Positions 2,770 through 57,463 of a stretch of 64,000 nt of DNA are shown one piece after another. The notes under the pieces were generated by a model, which was given only the letters and a program-made list of their open reading frames with translations, did not search any database and was not told the origin of the DNA. The position numbers were made by a program, and so were the translations under genes. Source of the DNA: an uncultured bacterium (GTDB taxonomy: Bacteria; Patescibacteriota; JABMPQ01; CAVVCK01); contig CAVVCK010000002.1 of assembly GCA_963746775.1 (NCBI GenBank), positions 431,656 through 495,655 of the forward strand. The letters are read 5' to 3'. Numbering within the stretch: position 1 is the stretch's first letter; each line of letters opens with the position of its first letter.

Positions 2770-2800
2770 TGTTTTTGTTTTGCTTTTAAAATTATATCAC

Positions 2801-2840
2801 AAATACGTAGGGGTTCAAAATTTTGAACCCCTACGTATTT
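2801..2840. terminator. Perfect 40-nt palindrome (AAATACGTAGGGGTTCAAAA|TTTTGAACCCCTACGTATTT), probable stem-loop terminator
   Basis: Read directly. It sits between the stop of the GT4 gene (2859) and the start of the DUF4012 gene (2769). Confidence 0.55.
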
Positions 2841-2858
2841 GTAAATTATGTTTCATAT

Positions 2859-4020: not shown

Positions 4021-4112
4021 AAATTCCTAATTTCTAATAAAATTTTTAATATCCAATGACAAATTATTTTTGAAATTTGACATTTGGATTTTTATTAGGA
4101 ATTAGAAATTGG
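4021..4112. repeat. Family-A word hairpin (TAGAAAT/GGAAAT words), long imperfect inverted repeat
   Basis: ATTCCTAATTTCTAATAAAA...TTTTATTAGGAATTAGAAATT outer arms and ATCCAATGACAAATT...AAATTTGACATTTGGAT inner arms fill the spacer between two GT4 genes. Confidence 0.6.
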
Positions 4113-5304: not shown

Positions 5305-5358
5305 TTATTTTTAGCTAATTTATCTTATTATATTAAATAAATATTTTATATTCAACAT

Positions 5359-5390
5359 AAATAGCCTAAATATGAATATTTAGGCTATTT
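5359..5390. terminator. 14-bp perfect stem-loop (AAATAGCCTAAATA tgaa TATTTAGGCTATTT)
   Basis: Read directly. It lies between the structured RNA region and the start of the GT4 gene. Its role (terminator versus spacer hairpin) is uncertain. Confidence 0.4.
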
Positions 5391-5414
5391 TAAACTATTT
5401 TTCACAAAAAAACC

Positions 5415-5443
5415 TTGACATTATTACTATTATGTGTTATCCT
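5415..5443 (+). promoter_or_regulatory. Sigma70-like promoter TTGACA-N17-TATCCT with TGn extended -10
   Basis: TTGACA at 5415-5420, TG at 5435-5436, TATCCT at 5438-5443. It points into the GC-rich structured region. Confidence 0.5.
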
Positions 5444-5449
5444 TTATTG

Positions 5450-6022
5450 TTTGTTCATTTACAAAATTTCCTTTTCTCTTTATAGCCCTAAAATTTAAGG
5501 CTTTAATGAGGAAAGGAGGTAGCATGAGTAGCTACCCGAGTGGGTTTGTCTAACAATAGGCAAAAATGCGAACCAGACCAAGATTCGACGGGGCGTCGAG
5601 GTCTGGTTGAACTTATTTTCCCCGTTAAACCTCTAACTGACAGAAGAAAGGAGGTTAACCCTGATTAAATCAGATTATGGCATGACGGCTTGCCATTTTC
5701 TGAAGAGCAAGAATAACCGTCAAACCCCCTGCATATTAAGGAGGTAAAATGCAGGTACACAAACGCTGGTTAGCAATGCTAACTAGCGCGATCTGAGAAA
5801 ACGCCACTCAGATCGTACAGAGGCGGTTCCCTGGGAGTTACCGCCGGGCGAAAAACTCCCAAACGGCCACGCTCAAGGCCACACCGAGACAGGCGATCTC
5901 GGCATTGAGCACAGGGGGCAAGCACCACATCGATCTTTTGCTTCGCCCCCACCCTTTTCAGAAAATATAATTAAATTGTATTTTGTGAAAATTAAAAAAT
6001 CACGCCTTAGGCGTGATTTTTT
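5450..6022 (+). ncRNA. Unclassified large structured RNA (about 570 nt). Strand is assigned from the promoter/terminator pair and is not certain.
   Basis: 210 of 420 nt are G+C in 5521-5940, against 18-30% in flanking lines. More than 10 directly readable helices, two pseudoknot-type pairings and three AAGGAGGU boxes. No credible ORF. See findings. Confidence 0.6.
5994..6022. terminator. Intrinsic terminator, A6-ATCACGCC-tta-GGCGTGAT-T6 (bidirectional geometry)
   Basis: GC-rich 8-bp stem flanked by an A-run and a T-run. Confidence 0.75.
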
Positions 6023-13067: not shown

Positions 13068-13084
13068 ATAAAATTAATTATCAT

Positions 13085-13115
13085 AAAAGCCCAGCATTTT
13101 GTAGCTGGGCTTTTT
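13085..13115. terminator. Bidirectional intrinsic terminator AAAAGCCCAGC-loop-GCTGGGCTTTTT between convergent genes
   Basis: Read directly. Confidence 0.8.
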
Positions 13116-13137
13116 AAATTATTTTATTATCATTATT

Positions 13138-13827: not shown

Positions 13828-13860
13828 GATTTTTATTACTTAATAATTATTTTATAAAAC

Positions 13861-13940
13861 CATCCGCTTTATCCGCCAAATCCGCTAATCCGTAAACAAT
13901 AGATAACGGATTAGGCGGATTATTGCGGATAAGCGGAAAA
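13861..13940. repeat. Family-B word hairpin (ATCCGC/GCGGAT words), copy B1
   Basis: CATCCGCTTTATCCGCCAAATCCGCTAATCCGT...ACGGATTAGGCGGATTATTGCGGATAAGCGGAAAA. The left arm is nearly identical to copy B2. Confidence 0.75.
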
Positions 13941-13944
13941 TATA

Positions 13945-14484
13945 TCAACGAGTCTTGTAATTCATGTTCATTATTTCTAAAAATTTTATAAATACTTGTG
14001 CTGTTACTTTAACATCACCTAAAGCTCTATGTCTATCTTCTTCTTGTATCCCTACCCCCATTCTCCTCGCTACAACATCCAAGTTGTGGCTCCTCTCATA
14101 GGGAAATAATTTTCTAGACAAATTAAGGGTACATACGAATTTTGGAATTGGCAAATTAATTCCGCAAAGATTAATCTCCGCTTGTAAAAATTTTTTATCA
14201 AAAGAAGCATTGTGGGCAACTAAAGCACTATCTCCAACGAATCGTAAAAACTTAGGTAATACTTTATACATCGTAGGCTTATTCTCAACCATTTCATCAG
14301 TTATACCATTTACTGCTGAAGCACTAAGAGATATAGGCCTTTCCGGATTAACCAGAGCTTCAAATTTTTCATTAGTTATTTTGCCATCAACTATTTTTAT
14401 AGCTGCCATTTCAATGATACGATCTCCTTGATCGGGACTTAAACCCGTGGTCTCTGTATCAAAAATTGTATACATTCTTCTCAT
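13945..14484 (-). CDS. DnaQ-family 3'-5' exonuclease (Pol III epsilon-like)
   Basis: FDTETTGL, HNASFDKKFL and HRALGDV correspond to Exo I-III. Confidence 0.85.
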   Translation of the reverse strand: MRRMYTIFDTETTGLSPDQGDRIIEMAAIKIVDGKITNEKFEALVNPERPISLSASAVNGITDEMVENKPTMYKVLPKFLRFVGDSALVAHNASFDKKFLQAEINLCGINLPIPKFVCTLNLSRKLFPYERSHNLDVVARRMGVGIQEEDRHRALGDVKVTAQVFIKFLEIMNMNYKTR

Positions 14485-14488
14485 TTTT

Positions 14489-15100
14489 TTATTTTTCTTC
14501 TATAAAATATTTCTTTAAGTCTTTTCTACTCTTCATTTCAGGTAGACAATTATCTATGAAGTTTTTGTAAGTATAATTCTTATGTGGGAATTGGCTTAAA
14601 ACTATCTCTTTATTACATAAAGTCCCTGATCTTTGATTTACATAGTCTAGATAGTTAGACCAAGGATATTTATTGAGGTTATGGGTTATTTTGTGTAGTT
14701 TAGGATTTAGATTAATGTAGGCAGAGAGCCAGAGAAGATATTCGTTGGAGTTAATGCGGATGGATTTGAAGCGGTCCTGGAATAATATACCGGATTTATC
14801 ATGTTTTTTATTAAAATAAATGGTATAGCTCGTTCCTAACCTATACATAAATTCTGAAATAGCATTATCTGACGTTTGTTTTAATATGAAATGATAATGA
14901 CTAGGATTTAGGCAGTAGGCTATAAATTCTACTCCCAAAGACTCAGCCTTTTTCAGAAAGGCTGAGTCTTGAGATTTTAAGCTTCTTATGGTTTTAATAA
15001 AGCGAATATAATCTCTTGTTTCTAAAAAAATATTTCTTTTATCTACACCACGGTTGTAGATATGATAATACTCGTTATTAGAAAATATAGTCCTCCTCAT
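14489..15100 (-). CDS. IS200/Y1-transposase-like protein of the REP-associated tyrosine transposase (RAYT) type
   Basis: YHIYNRGVDKRNIF...AYCLNPSHYHFIL (HUH)...FQDRFKS...YINLNPKLHKI...YPWSNY. Confidence 0.75.
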   Translation of the reverse strand: MRRTIFSNNEYYHIYNRGVDKRNIFLETRDYIRFIKTIRSLKSQDSAFLKKAESLGVEFIAYCLNPSHYHFILKQTSDNAISEFMYRLGTSYTIYFNKKHDKSGILFQDRFKSIRINSNEYLLWLSAYINLNPKLHKITHNLNKYPWSNYLDYVNQRSGTLCNKEIVLSQFPHKNYTYKNFIDNCLPEMKSRKDLKKYFIEEK

Positions 15101-15109
15101 GAAGAATTA

Positions 15110-16846
15110 TTACTTAGCCTTCCTAAAATCAACTACCCTAATTTGCAAATTTTTCTTCCCATTCCATTCATTACAATCAATTTCAAAAATAATATCTATT
15201 TCATTGCCAAGCTCTTTTAATTTACCATTTTTAATATTAAAATATACACCTTCAATTTGCCCTTTATTATTTTGATCATTTAAAATTAATTTTAAATGAT
15301 CCCGCCTTTTACCAATTCTATCAAAACTCATTACCAATACTTTATGAGATATAAATAAAGGTTTTTCATTATTAGCACCATATGGCTTTAATTTTTCTAG
15401 CTCATTATAAAAATCCCAATTGATATTTTTTAAATCAATCTCTGCTTCTATATTTATTTTAGGTATTAAATCTTCTTCGCTTAGTTTTTCTTCAGCAATT
15501 TTATTAATTTTTTCAGAAAATTTATCTAAATTTTCATTTTCTAAAGTACAACCAGCCGCTCCTTTATGCCCACCAAACTCTAATAATAAATCCGAGCAAT
15601 CATTTATAGCCTCAATAATATTAAAGCTTGGAATACTACGAGCAGAGCCAGCACTCTCCTTCTCTCCTCGCGTTAAGACAAAACTTGGCCTAAAATATTC
15701 CTCGCAAATCTTAGAAGCTACTATACCCATCACTCCTAATGGCCAACCTTCTTTATTAGCTATTAAAACTTTCTTTGATAAATCTAATTCTTTCTTAATT
15801 TCCCTAAAAATTTGGTCCGTTATTCGCTGTCTTTTCCTATTAGATAATTCTAGTTGATAAGATAGAAGCTTCGCAATGCCATAAGATTCTGTGGCTAATA
15901 ATTTATAGGCAGCATTAGCATGATCTAGACGTCCTGCCGAATTAATACGTGGAGCTAAATAGAAACCTACTCCAAAACTATCAACCTTGAGTAAATCTAC
16001 TTGAGCAGACTTAGCTAGAGCTTGAAATCCCTGCCTTTTGGACTTAGATAATACTTTTAATCCTTCTTGCACTAAAATTCTATTTTCACCTGTCAGAGGC
16101 GAGCAATCAGCTATTGTCCCTACCGCTACTAAATCTAATAAACTTTTTTCAAATTCTTCTTGTAGTTCCTTATTTTCCTTAAATTCTGTATTAGTTTTTT
16201 TAATTATTTCAGACCTAAAAATTGCTTGAGCTAATTTAAAAACAATTCCTACTCCAGATAGTTCTTTATAGGGATATTCATCCTTTCCTTGTTTAGCATT
16301 AACAATTATATAATCATCAGAAAATTCTTCCGACAAATGATGATGATCAAAAACAATTACATCTACTCCCTTTTCTTTAGCATAATCAATTTCGAGCTTA
16401 TTCGCTACCCCACAATCACAAGTAACAATCAATTTTATATCTTTTTTAATTAACCAATCTATCGCTTTTTTATTTAACCCATATCCCTCACGCGCCCTAT
16501 CTGGAATATACAATTGCCCGGATAAACCCAAAACTTTCTTAAATATTTCTGTTAAAACGAGAGAAGAAGTTACTCCATCAGCGTCATAATCGCCATATAT
16601 CCCTACTCTCTCTTTATTATCCATAGCTTTTCCAATTCGCTCCAGGGCCCTATCCATATCTTTAAATAAAAATGGATCATATAAATCAGAATATTTTAAA
16701 TTATAAAACTTATCGATTTTATCTTTTGTATCAATTTTTCTATTAAATAGTAATTGTAAAATAGTAGAATTATATTGAGAAAAGTGAGAAATAAATTCCT
16801 GAGGTGCTTTTTCTAATATATTCCATTTTTTTGAAATTTCAGACAT
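15110..16846 (-). CDS. recJ: Single-stranded-DNA-specific exonuclease RecJ
   Basis: 578 aa. DHH family motifs GDYDADGVTS, DCG, FDHHH. Confidence 0.9.
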   Translation of the reverse strand: MSEISKKWNILEKAPQEFISHFSQYNSTILQLLFNRKIDTKDKIDKFYNLKYSDLYDPFLFKDMDRALERIGKAMDNKERVGIYGDYDADGVTSSLVLTEIFKKVLGLSGQLYIPDRAREGYGLNKKAIDWLIKKDIKLIVTCDCGVANKLEIDYAKEKGVDVIVFDHHHLSEEFSDDYIIVNAKQGKDEYPYKELSGVGIVFKLAQAIFRSEIIKKTNTEFKENKELQEEFEKSLLDLVAVGTIADCSPLTGENRILVQEGLKVLSKSKRQGFQALAKSAQVDLLKVDSFGVGFYLAPRINSAGRLDHANAAYKLLATESYGIAKLLSYQLELSNRKRQRITDQIFREIKKELDLSKKVLIANKEGWPLGVMGIVASKICEEYFRPSFVLTRGEKESAGSARSIPSFNIIEAINDCSDLLLEFGGHKGAAGCTLENENLDKFSEKINKIAEEKLSEEDLIPKINIEAEIDLKNINWDFYNELEKLKPYGANNEKPLFISHKVLVMSFDRIGKRRDHLKLILNDQNNKGQIEGVYFNIKNGKLKELGNEIDIIFEIDCNEWNGKKNLQIRVVDFRKAK

Positions 16847-16896
16847 TCAATATAATTAATAACATGACTCATACTATCATAAATTTCCATATATGC

Positions 16897-16922
16897 AAAA
16901 AAGAGCATCCTGCTCTTTTTTT
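16897..16922. terminator. Intrinsic terminator AAAAAAGAGCA tcc TGCTCTTTTTTT
   Basis: Read directly. Follows the ROK kinase stop. Confidence 0.75.
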
Positions 16923-16932
16923 AAATTTATAC

Positions 16933-45153: not shown

Positions 45154-45172
45154 AAATCATTAACTATGTAAT

Positions 45173-45250
45173 TATCCGCTTTATCCGCCAAATCCGCTAT
45201 ATCCGTAAACTACAAATAGCGGATAAAGCGGATTCTGCGGATAGACGGAA
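45173..45250. repeat. Family-B word hairpin, copy B2, between rplN and rplX
   Basis: ATCCGCTTTATCCGCCAAATCCGCTATATCCGTAAAC...AGCGGATAAAGCGGATTCTGCGGATAGACGGAAAA. Confidence 0.75.
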
Positions 45251-48996: not shown

Positions 48997-49037
48997 TTAA
49001 TAATTGATAATAAATAATGAAAATGAAATTAGTTATT

Positions 49038-49096
49038 TAGAAAATAGAAATTTGTAATAGATATTAGAAACTAGAATTACAAATTTCTATTTTCTA
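49038..49096. repeat. Family-A hairpin A4: perfect 21-bp stem TAGAAAATAGAAATTTGTAAT / ATTACAAATTTCTATTTTCTA with a 17-nt loop, between rplW and rplB
   Basis: Arms at 49038-49058 and 49076-49096 verified base by base. Confidence 0.85.
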
Positions 49097-49181
49097 CTTT
49101 CAATTACCCTTTTCTAGTTTCTGTACATCCAGTTTCATGTAAAATATTTTAAATGTGATCACTTTCAATAACAAATATAAT

Positions 49182-50914: not shown

Positions 50915-50951
50915 CAATAAATTACGTAAATTAATATTTACCTATCAAAAA

Positions 50952-51001
50952 CCGGAAATTTAAGAAGCCAGAAAACATACGCCGGCTTCTAAAATTTCCG
51001 G
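50952..51001. repeat. 18-bp stem-loop CCGGAAATTTAAGAAGCC / GGCTTCTAAAATTTCCGG (one mismatch)
   Basis: Read directly. In the rpsJ-rplC spacer. Confidence 0.7.
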
Positions 51002-51072
51002 ACCTTGCTTACTTTAAATTTACTAAATAACAATAAAATAATTATTTAGTAAATTCTTTAGCTTATACTTTT

Positions 51073-51096
51073 AAGTCCCGATTTTAATCGGAACTT
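51073..51096. terminator. Small stem-loop AAGTCCCGAT ttta ATCGGAACTT just after the rpsJ stop
   Basis: Read directly. One C/A mismatch. Confidence 0.4.
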
Positions 51097-51111
51097 TAAT
51101 TATAAACTATC

Positions 51112-53191: not shown

Positions 53192-53272
53192 AAAATTATG
53201 TTAAATTATTTATATTATTTCTTTTATTGTAATCTATCAATAAAGACAAATCTAATATAAATATTGAAATAT

Positions 53273-53396
53273 ATAGAAACTTATTGAAATTCACAGAAAT
53301 TAATTGTTGTTTACCATGTACTCAGAAAAACAACAACGAATTTCCTATACTTCGACAAACTCAGCACAAGATTTCTATTAATTTCTAAGTTTCTAT
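53273..53396. repeat. Nested long hairpin downstream of fusA
   Basis: Outer ATAGAAACTTATTGAAATT / AATTTCTAAGTTTCTAT. Inner GAAATTAATTGTTGTTT / AAACAACAACGAATTTC. The right arm overlaps the fusA stop codon. Confidence 0.6.
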
Positions 53397-55498: not shown

Positions 55499-55503
55499 AT
55501 TTT

Positions 55504-55585
55504 CGATACTAATATACTAATTTATACGAATTATACTAATACAAAATTATTCGTATTATTAGTATTCATTCGTATATTGGCATCG
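55504..55585. repeat. Family-C word hairpin, copy C2, between rpsG and fusA
   Basis: CGATACTAATATACTAAT...TTAGTATTCATTCGTATATTGGCATCG. Both ends are nearly identical to C1. Confidence 0.7.
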
Positions 55586-55586
55586 A

Positions 55587-56139: not shown

Positions 56140-56610
56140 TTATTTACTTTCTTCTTTAGGAACTTCGGCAGGCGCTGCCTTCTTCTTGGCTCCCTTACTG
56201 CTTTTATCTAATTTAGCACCATATAGACTTCTTCCCTGTTTTCTGCCATCTACACCGCCTGTATCAAGCGGTCCACGAACAATATGATATTTAACACCGG
56301 GCAAATCTTTTACTCTACCACCACGGACAAGTACTACAGAGTGTTCTTGTAAATTATGACCTTCTCCTGGAATATAGGCAGTAACTTCCGTACCATTAGT
56401 AAGTCTGACACGAGCAATCTTTCTTAGAGCAGAGTTTGGCTTCTTAGGAGTCATAGTGGTTACTTTCATACAAACTCCTCTTTTGAAAGGATTGCCAGTT
56501 TTTACAAATTTCTTTTTAATTTTATTAAAATCACGCTGCAGTGCAGGTGACTTGGGTTTTCTCTTAACAGTTTTTCTTCTTCTCTTTACTAATTGATTAA
56601 TAGTTGGCAT
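56140..56610 (-). CDS. rpsL: 30S ribosomal protein S12 with a roughly 30-aa C-terminal extension
   Basis: [10 protein letters not shown]...[10 protein letters not shown]...GVKYHIVRG. Confidence 0.95.
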
Positions 56611-56680: not shown

Positions 56681-56708
56681 ATTATAGTAAGCAAAAAAAA
56701 GATGTCAA
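56681..56708 (-). promoter_or_regulatory. Consensus promoter TTGACA-N16-TATAAT upstream of rpsL
   Basis: Minus strand has TTGACA at 56708..56703 and TATAAT at 56686..56681. Confidence 0.65.
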
Positions 56709-56784: not shown

Positions 56785-56948
56785 AAAAAATAGAAACTGG
56801 CTATATAGAAAATAGAAATTGGTAATAGAAATTAGAAAAATTGAAAATAGTTATGATATAATTCAAATGAAACAAAAGCTATTTTCTAATTTCCAATTAC
56901 TATTACTATCTTCCAATTTCTAAATAGCTAATTTCAATTTCATTTTTT
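56785..56948. repeat. Family-A word hairpin, copy A5 (about 65-nt arms)
   Basis: AAAAAATAGAAACTGGCTATATAGAAAATAGAAATTGGTAATAGAAATTAGAAAAATTGAAAATAG...CTATTTTCTAATTTCCAATTACTATTACTATCTTCCAATTTCTAAATAGCTAATTTCAATTTCATTTTTT. Confidence 0.65.
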
Positions 56949-56999: not shown

Positions 57000-57029
57000 T
57001 TGCATTTATTCTTTATTTCGTATTATAAT
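57000..57029 (+). promoter_or_regulatory. Promoter-like TTGCAT-N18-TATAAT placed 6 nt before an ATG (possible leaderless mRNA)
   Basis: TTGCAT at 57000-57005, TATAAT at 57024-57029, ATG at 57036. Confidence 0.4.
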
Positions 57030-57035
57030 TACTCT

Positions 57036-57410
57036 ATGCAAATAAACATCCTAAAAAGCAAAAATCTCCAGCAATCCACATCTGAAATTACTAGAGACAT
57101 TTTTGAAGTATTTTCTATTTTTTATTTAATTTTATTATTAGTAAATCAAATAAAAATAGGCTTTGTGAGTGATTTCTTAAATTTAAATCATATCTTAATA
57201 ATTGTTGTAGTCTCAGGACTTTTATCTCTCTGGAAAGAAAAATTAGAAGTGGGCAATAGAGATTATGTTTTTATTGTAATTTTGGCTCTGCTTGGAGCTA
57301 TGGCTATATTCTATAAAACTTCTATCTTCGGAAATTTTAAAGCTTCTATTTTCGCTTTCTTGAGTTTTGTTTTTATTATTTTAGTTTTATTTTTTTTATT
57401 AAAGAAGTAA
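57036..57410 (+). CDS. Hypothetical 124-aa membrane protein (the track ORF starts earlier at TTG 57000)
   Basis: Four hydrophobic segments. Followed by a terminator. Confidence 0.55.
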   Translation: MQINILKSKNLQQSTSEITRDIFEVFSIFYLILLLVNQIKIGFVSDFLNLNHILIIVVVSGLLSLWKEKLEVGNRDYVFIVILALLGAMAIFYKTSIFGNFKASIFAFLSFVFIILVLFFLLKK

Positions 57411-57423
57411 ATTGTTTTGCATT

Positions 57424-57454
57424 AAAAAAGACTGCACAAGAGCAATCTTTTTTT
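57424..57454. terminator. Bidirectional terminator AAAAAAGACTGC acaaga GCAATCTTTTTTT
   Basis: Between convergent genes. Confidence 0.7.
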
Positions 57455-57463
57455 ATTTATTAT

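Follow-up and report, generated by a model that had tools for sequence, protein, structure and literature searches.

The 64-kb stretch of DNA analysed here (the window) contains, between the rpsL promoter and a divergently transcribed small membrane-protein gene, a long imperfect palindrome, A5, one of six copies in the window of an intergenic repeat that we call family A. The window has a G+C content of about 31% and a strong G/C skew, and its genes are almost all co-oriented on the minus strand; it encodes the str, S10 and spc ribosomal-protein clusters. Proteins S12 and L5, and a protein resembling REP-associated tyrosine transposases (RAYT; REP, repetitive extragenic palindromic sequence), have their best homologues in metagenome-assembled genomes (MAGs) of Patescibacteria, or candidate phyla radiation (CPR), and identical copies of all three are recorded on one contig of 547,535 bp. 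A plastid or other organellar origin, considered because of the low G+C content, rnpB and the ribosomal-protein clusters, was rejected on account of these homologues. Bacterial RNase P RNA was the only Rfam family reaching the threshold in the window, and ARAGORN called no tRNA gene in positions 1-64000. The data comprised the window, syntenic contigs of relatives (L001, L003, L007, L009, L010 and L140-L143; other contigs are numbered likewise) and pattern scans of public collections. L141, L142 and L143 are three further relatives with contigs spanning the ribosomal-protein clusters; the L143 contig is 1.05 Mb long, and its L5 is 78% identical to that of the window. The features at the A5 locus are as follows.

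56681..56708, minus strand: rpsL promoter, TTGACA-16-TATAAT, matching the consensus at 12 of 12 positions.
56785..56948: A5, a foldback element of the A-RY subfamily with RGAAAWT words in the left arm and AWTTTCY words in the right arm; family profile match at 56789-56939, E=2.5e-24.
57010..57410, plus strand: small membrane-protein gene, ATG at 57036, promoter TTGCAT...TATAAT.

The rpsL promoter is conserved in L001, L003 and L009, and the leader is also conserved in relatives. The small membrane-protein open reading frame and its promoter are conserved in L001, L009 and L010. A5 is situated between the two divergent promoters, upstream of both, and thus no mapped transcript covers it. The spacer is 425 nt long in the window, as compared to 190 nt in L001, 137 nt in L010 and 290 nt in L009; A5 is absent from all three orthologous spacers. 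At the start of the small membrane-protein gene (57010-57040, plus strand), the -10 hexamer ends about 6 nt before the ATG, also in L001, which suggests that this mRNA is leaderless. The S12 protein (56140-56610, minus strand) contains about 15-25 residues inserted internally and is extended at the C terminus by a lysine-rich segment; its length of 156 residues is matched by the closest homologues, which are 89-90% identical over the whole query.

The other five copies of family A in the window are the following.

4021..4112: A1, A-YR subfamily, pyrimidine-type words in the 5' arm.
35557..35684: A2, A-RY subfamily, best aligned in the reverse orientation; profile E=2.9e-23.
39150..39263: A3, A-YR subfamily, in the SecY/Adk spacer.
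49023..49139: A4, A-RY subfamily, in the L23/L2 spacer of the S10 operon, with a 21-bp core stem at 49038-49096; profile E=1.9e-19.
63023..63163: A6, A-RY subfamily, in the spacer between MetK and UDP-glucose dehydrogenase (UGDH); profile E=1.2e-24.

Each of the six intervals folds into a long imperfect hairpin, as the sequence-only reading of this DNA had proposed. Controls were dinucleotide shuffles (500 for arm symmetry, 200 for the folding of A5, and 200 for the comparison of a further hairpin, 53265..53396, with A5). Arm symmetry was scored by aligning the left arm with the reverse complement of the right arm. In A5 it amounts to 50 identities in 64 aligned positions (z=11.5, equalled by none of the 500 shuffles), and in A4 the stem is perfect over 21 bp (z=10.6). 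The scores of A6, A1 and A3 are lower (z=5.6, 5.4 and 4.3, respectively), and the symmetry is weakest in A2 (z=3.5, 3 of 500 shuffles equal). Folded as DNA, A5 has a minimum free energy z-score of -4.06, with 2 of 200 shuffles folding equally well. The arms have a heptameric periodicity beyond chance, with a lag-7 autocorrelation of 0.56 versus 0.35 in shuffled sequences (z=10.1) and z=5.1 at lag 14, and an independent method, Tandem Repeats Finder, called arrays of periods 7 and 9 in arms. Spacers are enriched 3-7 times in the family words; genes are not.

The copies are also similar to each other far beyond shuffled sequences: z=21.7 for A5-A6, 12.3 for A2-A5, 10.9 for A4-A5 and 7.2 for A1-A3. 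The collinear left arm of A5 and A6, seen earlier by eye, is visible in the alignment. The sequence-only reading had named shuffled AT-rich controls with comparable arm lengths and inter-copy similarity as the outcome that would refute it; the shuffles produced neither. The hairpins are real and non-random. Family A had been presented as a single family; its copies fall into two subfamilies of opposite polarity. In A-RY (A2, A4, A5 and A6, mutually collinear) the RGAAAWT words are in the 5' arm. In A-YR (A1 and A3) the complementary words come first and the inner palindrome is different; this subfamily is collinear with an L001 element at another locus, the match of A1 with L001 2170-2310, a non-orthologous site, having z=17.4.

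Each arm is conserved as a collinear sequence that includes landmarks outside the words, TGGYTRTATAG, TTGGTAAT and ACAACTAATTTC. The copies also agree in how their left and right arms differ. In the consensus alignment, the element ends GAAATTAGTTRT and ACAACTAATTTC match at 11 of 12 positions and form terminal inverted repeats of the kind found in miniature inverted-repeat transposable elements (MITEs). A family-A element is an imperfect palindrome with such terminal repeats, the arms of which are degenerate heptamer arrays, RGAAAWT and its complement, and the copies share common descent. Two closely similar, apparently orthologous copies, in L014 and L029, differ by an indel of 21 nt, or three words; arms gain and lose whole words. 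The loops of the copies in L057, L085 and L097 contain nested insertions, and some loops hold G+C-rich hairpins.

No sign of selection for RNA pairing was observed. The RNAalifold consensus has an energy of -4.6 kcal/mol with a covariation term of 0.08, and a double change of any kind occurs in only two of the 13 consensus pairs. The arms of a copy fit each other no better than they fit the arms of other copies (39.2 vs 47.7). In 20 hairpins of the window, mismatches of the G.T type are equally frequent on the two strands (39 vs 38; 118 mismatches are non-wobble). With no covariation, no strand bias of wobbles and no better fit of own arms, a structured RNA maintained by pairing is rejected, and the earlier suggestion of RNA hairpins, understood as structural selection, is not supported; A5, upstream of both promoters, is a further point against it. 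There was no Rfam match for family A, and permissive scans of A5 gave chance-level matches. Intrinsic terminators, consisting of a G+C-rich stem and a U-tract, were rejected as well. The family-A stems are A-T-rich and 40-65 bp long, a run of at least five T at the right end is present in five of 32 copies (at both ends in two) and missing from the other 27, and a consensus terminator scan of the window found none at family-A sites. This pattern of arm conservation is that of a DNA repeat family derived from a master sequence, not of an RNA kept by pairing or of a class of terminators.

Similar hairpins with other words occur elsewhere in the window.

13860..13940: B1, period-9 hairpin with ATCCGC words, just downstream of the RecJ-RAYT-exonuclease operon.
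45170..45250: B2, family-B hairpin in the L14/L24 spacer.
42965..43058: C1, period-9 hairpin with ATACGAAT/ATACTAAT words in the L6/L18 spacer.
55499..55586: C2, family-C hairpin occupying the S7/EF-G spacer entirely.
53265..53396: hairpin with family-A-like words in the spacer between EF-G and a 109-residue protein, of doubtful membership.

Families B and C have period 9 (z=10.1 and 3.7, respectively) and similar copies (z=31 for B1-B2 and 24.8 for C1-C2). They and the singletons are sister families of family A, with the architecture in common and different words. The hairpin at 53265..53396 is only marginally similar to A5 (z=3.5, 3 of 200 shuffles equal), and the orthologous spacer of L001 is 96 nt long and has no hairpin. 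The family-B words TTATCCGCA resemble the DnaA box, TTATCCACA. The claim that almost all spacers above 60 bp are word hairpins was overstated: the window has 38 spacers of more than 60 nt, of which 20 fold with z of -3 or lower and 17 contain a tandem-word hairpin by inspection. Several of the remaining spacers contain terminators with a G+C-rich stem and a T-run (e.g. 13068-13137, 16847-16932, 38392-38432 and 57411-57463), and others hold RNase P RNA or no such feature. When the lengths of the elements are added up, hairpin repeats are roughly estimated to make up about a quarter of the intergenic DNA of the window.

Many of the spacers filled by hairpins in the window are compact in L143.

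L23/L2 spacer: 14 nt in L143, 185 nt in the window, with A4.
L14/L24 spacer: 10 nt in L143, 127 nt in the window, with B2.
L6/L18 spacer: 20 nt in L143, 103 nt in the window, with C1.
SecY/Adk spacer: 32 nt in L143, 216 nt in the window, with A3.
Map/RuvX spacer: 2 nt in L143, 166 nt in the window, with the singleton 37490-37644, which has ACAAAC-type words.
RuvX/GT2 spacer: 4 nt in L143, 117 nt in the window, with a G+C-rich hairpin.

B2 is also missing from L141, where the L14/L24 spacer is 10 nt long, and from L142, where it is 48 nt long and hairpin-free; L142 has other hairpins at L23/L2, L16/L29 and S17/L14. Since the relatives have compact spacers where the window has hairpins, the hairpins are insertions. 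Filled and empty sites among relatives constitute an insertion polymorphism such as is expected of MITEs: family-A copies were inserted relative to compact ancestral operon spacers, including those of the universally conserved S10 and spc ribosomal-protein operons, and their presence differs between close relatives. Other spacers are filled differently in different genomes. The MetK/UGDH spacer contains an A-RY element in the window and, in a spacer of the same length in L001, an A-YR element of different sequence; the S7/EF-G spacer contains a family-C hairpin in the window, and in L001 and L009 a G+C-rich triple hairpin unrelated to it; the spacer between a 167-residue protein and TIM contains family A in the window and family C in L143; and in L143 the spacer that bears A2 in the window has a family-C hairpin instead.

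Family A is not confined to the window. When 185,579 species genomes were scanned for a left-arm core of 19 nt together with a right-arm word, seven matches were obtained; four of them, from MAGs with a G+C content of 0.37-0.43, are true elements in which both arms are complete and collinear. A metagenome scan with the left-arm core alone found at least 24 true elements among the 120 matches listed, in contigs with a G+C content of 0.33-0.53. The element, about 130 nt long, is present in at least 28 other contigs, with G+C of 0.33-0.53. A profile built from 21 copies recovered 32 distinct elements, including copies missed by the pattern, and essentially nothing in about 95 contigs with chance matches; three of the copies that it found lie within 6.5 kb in L061, and L052, L073 and L097 have two each. 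All copies are intergenic, often filling the whole spacer. They lie in 12 or 13 co-directional, four convergent and one or two divergent gene pairs, in the sense orientation in seven cases and antisense in seven. Their neighbours are unrelated housekeeping genes, such as those of YebC, RuvC, L9, FtsK, FtsH, PolX, S4 and S13, and one copy follows an L5 gene whose product is only 46% identical to L5 of the window. A phage or plasmid vector was considered and rejected: none of 30 pattern matches in viral contigs was real, and there was no phage or plasmid BLAST match, although the low-complexity filter may hide matches.

Some contigs showed further peculiarities. In L110 (2540-2720) there are about 14 purine heptamers of the family-A type with no complementary arm nearby; this array may be an arm on its own or a half-element that has expanded. 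The family-A elements at L073 5010-5119 and 9060-9176 and at L107 6238-6355 lie between identical G+C-rich flanks, CCCCGCCCTACTTGTGTTA...TCTCTCRTRGCGGGG, which suggests nesting in, or co-mobilisation with, a second palindromic repeat. Two short element-bearing contigs are labelled as Gammaproteobacteria (L014) and Candidatus Methylomirabilis (L016), phyla otherwise without the element; they may be mis-binned CPR contigs.

We conclude that family A probably consists of non-autonomous, interspersed foldback repeats of about 120-165 bp, similar to MITEs or to REPINs (hairpins formed by inverted REP doublets) and apparently undescribed. Among the origins proposed in the sequence-only reading, products of a hairpin-generating mobile element are the one we favour, given the collinear homologues at non-orthologous sites and the presence/absence polymorphism among relatives. 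The elements would move as DNA, probably as single-strand hairpins, by means of a transposase of the HUH/Y1 or another type acting in trans, and such movement would leave no recognisable target duplication. Replication slippage between tandem words may both create the arrays and keep them homogeneous. Copies in operons are expected to be co-transcribed, giving a long A-U-rich RNA hairpin that would be tolerated because, having no U-tract, it would cause no termination. Such a hairpin may secondarily act as a processing or stability signal.

The same reading knew of no described mechanism or function for this architecture; to hold that nothing described is similar would be too strong: REPINs and bacterial interspersed mosaic elements (BIMEs), MITEs of the ERIC and Correia types, and eukaryotic foldback (FB) elements are close analogues. 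Palindromic MITEs (ERIC/IRU in enterobacteria, Correia/NEMIS in Neisseria, RUP/BOX in Streptococcus, RPE in Rickettsia) resemble family A in having a length of about 100-170 bp, terminal inverted repeats, positions in spacers and co-transcribed regions, presence/absence differences, nested insertions and, in the case of RPE, reduced host genomes. Unlike them, family A has no identified target-site duplication or parent insertion sequence, the fetched loci contain no autonomous element with the same ends, the arms of the hairpins considered here repeat every 7 or 9 nt over their full length, family A comes in two subfamilies of opposite polarity, and no copies are seen inside genes. The FB elements of Drosophila and other eukaryotes are kilobase-sized, with subrepeats of 10, 20 or 31 bp and, in some cases, coding loops. 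They share with family A arms made of short tandem subrepeats in variable number that snap back into a hairpin. Organellar hairpin repeats (sponge mitochondrial RHE, PMC2800124; fungal double-hairpin elements) are likewise families of short hairpins that have repeatedly and independently invaded the spacers of compact genomes; however, they are organellar, usually G+C-rich relative to the genome, and have no heptad arrays. Intrinsic terminators, including hairpin clusters (PMC8355165), are similar in that the hairpin is downstream of genes, and the copies A5, L015 and L032 have flanking A/T runs. They differ from family A, with its 40-65 bp A-T stems, 27 of 32 copies without a T-run, random orientation, and positions inside obligatory operons and in a region upstream of promoters.

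The window contains a candidate for the mobilising enzyme.

14489..15100, minus strand: RAYT-like HUH/Y1 transposase homologue, PF01797, E=8e-9.

The best NCBIfam match of its product is NF047646 (REP-associated tyrosine transposase), which it matches with 39 bits where the cutoff is 80. The HUH (SHYHF) and tyrosine (YINLNP) motifs are present, and a sequence search of PDB gave no significant match. The family has more than 2,000 homologues, mostly in Patescibacteria, under the JGI name "REP element-mobilizing transposase RayT". The gene belongs to an operon (13945-16846, minus strand) encoding RecJ, the RAYT-like protein and a DnaQ-like DEDD exonuclease, with gaps of 4 and 9 nt, a gene order also found in L140. 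It looks like a domesticated, vertically inherited gene amid enzymes of single-stranded DNA processing. Its product is a candidate, though unproven, mobilising enzyme. A short palindrome resembling classical REPs, GTAG...CTAC, GTAGGGGTTCAAAATTTTGAACCCCTAC, occurs at different loci in the window (2788-2853, palindrome 2807-2834) and in L009 (1224-1251); the L009 copy is upstream of the rpsL promoter.

Several observations weigh against the favoured interpretation of family A as MITE- or REPIN-like foldback repeats. No family-A copy flanks the RAYT-like gene, the nearest word hairpin being that of family B, one gene away, and L139 and L140 have RAYT homologues, L140 even in the same operon, yet few word hairpins. 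No transposase partner or autonomous element was found in the fetched loci, where the genes between paired copies encode FtsH, PolX, S4 and S13. The flanks of the 32 copies show no common direct repeat, and neither a target-site duplication nor a conserved target could be defined, the flanks being AT-rich, the word ends ragged and no near-identical empty site at hand. Copies within the window are as similar to each other as to those of other genomes (identity 0.70 in both cases), which is as compatible with constraint toward one universal consensus as with repeated transfer. Inside the words, GAAA and T hardly vary, whereas the W and R positions do. The B1 spacer (13828-13944) is identical to L140 8020-8136 at 110 of 117 positions (94%), although the flanking genes are about 80% identical and their third codon positions 60-65%, and it is far more conserved than other spacers, e.g. 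ROK/RecJ; together with the periodic conservation of words this hints at a sequence-specific function. Finally, different families fill the same spacers in different genomes, and reoccupation of this kind could mean that a hairpin is selected for and not just permitted there. The periodicity, the missing clustering by genome, B1 and the reoccupied spacers are not well explained by a plain selfish MITE.

These same observations (the periodic conservation inside words, the B1 spacer, the lack of genome-specific clustering, and the MetK/UGDH, S7/EF-G, L23/L2 and 167-residue/TIM spacers, which contain a hairpin of one family or another depending on the genome) speak for a function in the host. The hairpins would then be operon punctuation, that is, bidirectional terminators, attenuators, signals for RNase III processing or mRNA stability, or DNA insulators, with words read by a conserved protein in single-stranded RNA or DNA or in the duplex; it would be this recognition, not recent transposition, that keeps the sequence conserved. 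In line with this, the copies are always intergenic, often fill the whole spacer, and lie between convergent genes in four cases and between divergent ones in one or two, and the elements have been kept in a streamlined genome (the only recorded contig is 547 kb long). However, A5 is upstream of both flanking promoters and outside any mapped transcript, the right-end T-run is limited to five of 32 copies (two at both ends), and the window has ordinary terminators with G+C-rich stems and T-runs separately. In the S10 and spc operons, the elements are found where relatives have spacers of 10-20 nt and evidently need nothing. Random orientation (seven sense, seven antisense) and the absence of covariation and of wobble strand bias do not favour such a role, and several families with unrelated words and two periods would each need a reader of their own in a very small genome. 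We regard host function as the primary explanation as unlikely, though by no means negligible; it and mobility are not mutually exclusive. A second reading, that of strict REPINs, holds that REP doublets are mobilised by the single-copy RAYT gene (14489-15100) and inherited vertically with it. In Escherichia and Pseudomonas, REP/BIME/REPIN systems with RAYT likewise consist of intergenic multi-copy palindromes arranged as inverted doublets in hairpins of about 100 nt, they are tolerated inside operons, and they are accompanied by a single-copy gene like the RAYT-like HUH/Y1 gene of the window; retention of an orthologous copy, as for B1, is also seen. Two inverted units forming one long repeated hairpin, the REPIN shape, are what family A has in its spacers. 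The RAYT-like gene retains the HUH and tyrosine motifs, its family occurs widely in Patescibacteria, the gene order around it is kept, as would be expected of a domesticated single-copy gene, the strongly conserved B1 stands at the end of its operon in two genomes, and a GTAG-tagged palindrome is present in the window and L009. On the other hand, the protein scores 39 against the RAYT cutoff of 80, and its gene, 4 and 9 nt from its neighbours, is not flanked by repeats, cognate or other. Family A has no GTAG/CGTC tag, and instead of short G+C-rich palindromes of 20-40 nt its arms are AT-rich tandem heptamer arrays of about 50-65 nt. L139 and L140 combine RAYT homologues with few word hairpins. 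Copies of REPIN populations, which are genome-specific and vertically inherited, cluster by genome; those of family A do not (0.70 vs 0.70) and span deeply diverged genomes, and the copy beside an L5 gene of 46% identity argues against purely vertical inheritance. Strict REPINs therefore seem to us very unlikely.

The third possibility is origin in place with no mobility, slippage making the words and template switching at quasi-palindromes mirroring them, so that the resemblance of copies would be compositional convergence. The arms are indeed tandem arrays with indels of whole words, the words and periods differ among hairpins, and the mismatches resemble decay at the DNA level. However, the landmarks TGGYTRTATAG, TTGGTAAT and ACAACTAATTTC are common to unrelated contexts and to genomes with G+C of 0.33-0.53, the left/right asymmetry is conserved across copies, and the inter-copy z-scores reach 10-30. 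As the sole cause, generation in place is strongly disfavoured by the cross-genome collinear homology, and we find it hardly credible. It is also conceivable, though clearly improbable, that the heptad arrays of family A and the nonamer arrays of families B and C are the functional core of an unrecognised system of Patescibacteria. HutP-type ring proteins read UAG every 7 nt. By analogy, a single-strand-binding factor might read GAAA every 7 nt, the hairpins then being genome-wide, protein-controlled operon punctuation; alternatively, the arrays might belong to a new foldback replicator able to grow and multiply through hairpin-primed synthesis, with no conventional transposase. Mirrored iteron-like arrays of protein-binding sites, another of the origins proposed earlier, are one possibility; the GAAA...T periodicity is compatible with them, but families with quite different words and periods have the architecture in common.

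Three further candidates were rejected. Iterons of a replication origin are expected at one locus with an initiator gene, whereas at least six dispersed copies occur in 64 kb beside unrelated neighbours. DNA-uptake sequences are not a match, as the words are enriched 3-7 times in spacers and not in genes. TIGR-Tas guide arrays, which occur in CPR, have tandem 36-nt dual-spacer units with box C/D motifs and an adjoining Nop-domain Tas gene (PMC12045711); family-A elements are single and dispersed between housekeeping genes, and the array anatomy differs.

Other structures were noted in the window and its relatives. A G+C-rich composite hairpin with CCCCTCC...GGAGGGG arms and the core GGTTTCGTG...CACGAAACC occurs in the window (36960-37076), in L001 (10945-11063 and 4700-5198) and in L009 (2425-2541), and is another dispersed repeat family at differing loci in relatives. 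A non-coding region of 568 nt (5305-5872), with a higher G+C content (0.38), is predicted to fold very stably on either strand (z about -8.7). It matches no Rfam family and is not called as a tmRNA, and may represent either a structured RNA that is not annotated or several G+C-rich hairpin elements in a cluster. The S10/L3 spacer (window 50930-51111, minus strand; L001 15263-15623; L007 9131-9409; L143 4179-4357) contains two hairpins kept across relatives: GTTTATAATTAAAGTTCCGAT...ATCGGGACTT...TATAAGC, and a long G+C-rich stem ending in CCGGTTTTTGAT. Given where they lie and the terminator-like end, they may be a ribosomal-protein leader or attenuator; they match no Rfam family.

The genomes of Patescibacteria, usually called streamlined, are among the smallest and most gene-dense in bacteria, and full-text literature searches found no description of interspersed palindromic repeats in this phylum. 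If the interpretation of family A as mobile foldback repeats is upheld, the family would serve to mark recent genome dynamics of CPR bacteria, and possibly horizontal exchange, and would be a likely cause of assembly breaks and mis-binning. It would also provide a test case for the toleration of long A-U hairpins in essential operons, and its word architecture would link tandem-repeat slippage to the growth of palindromes.

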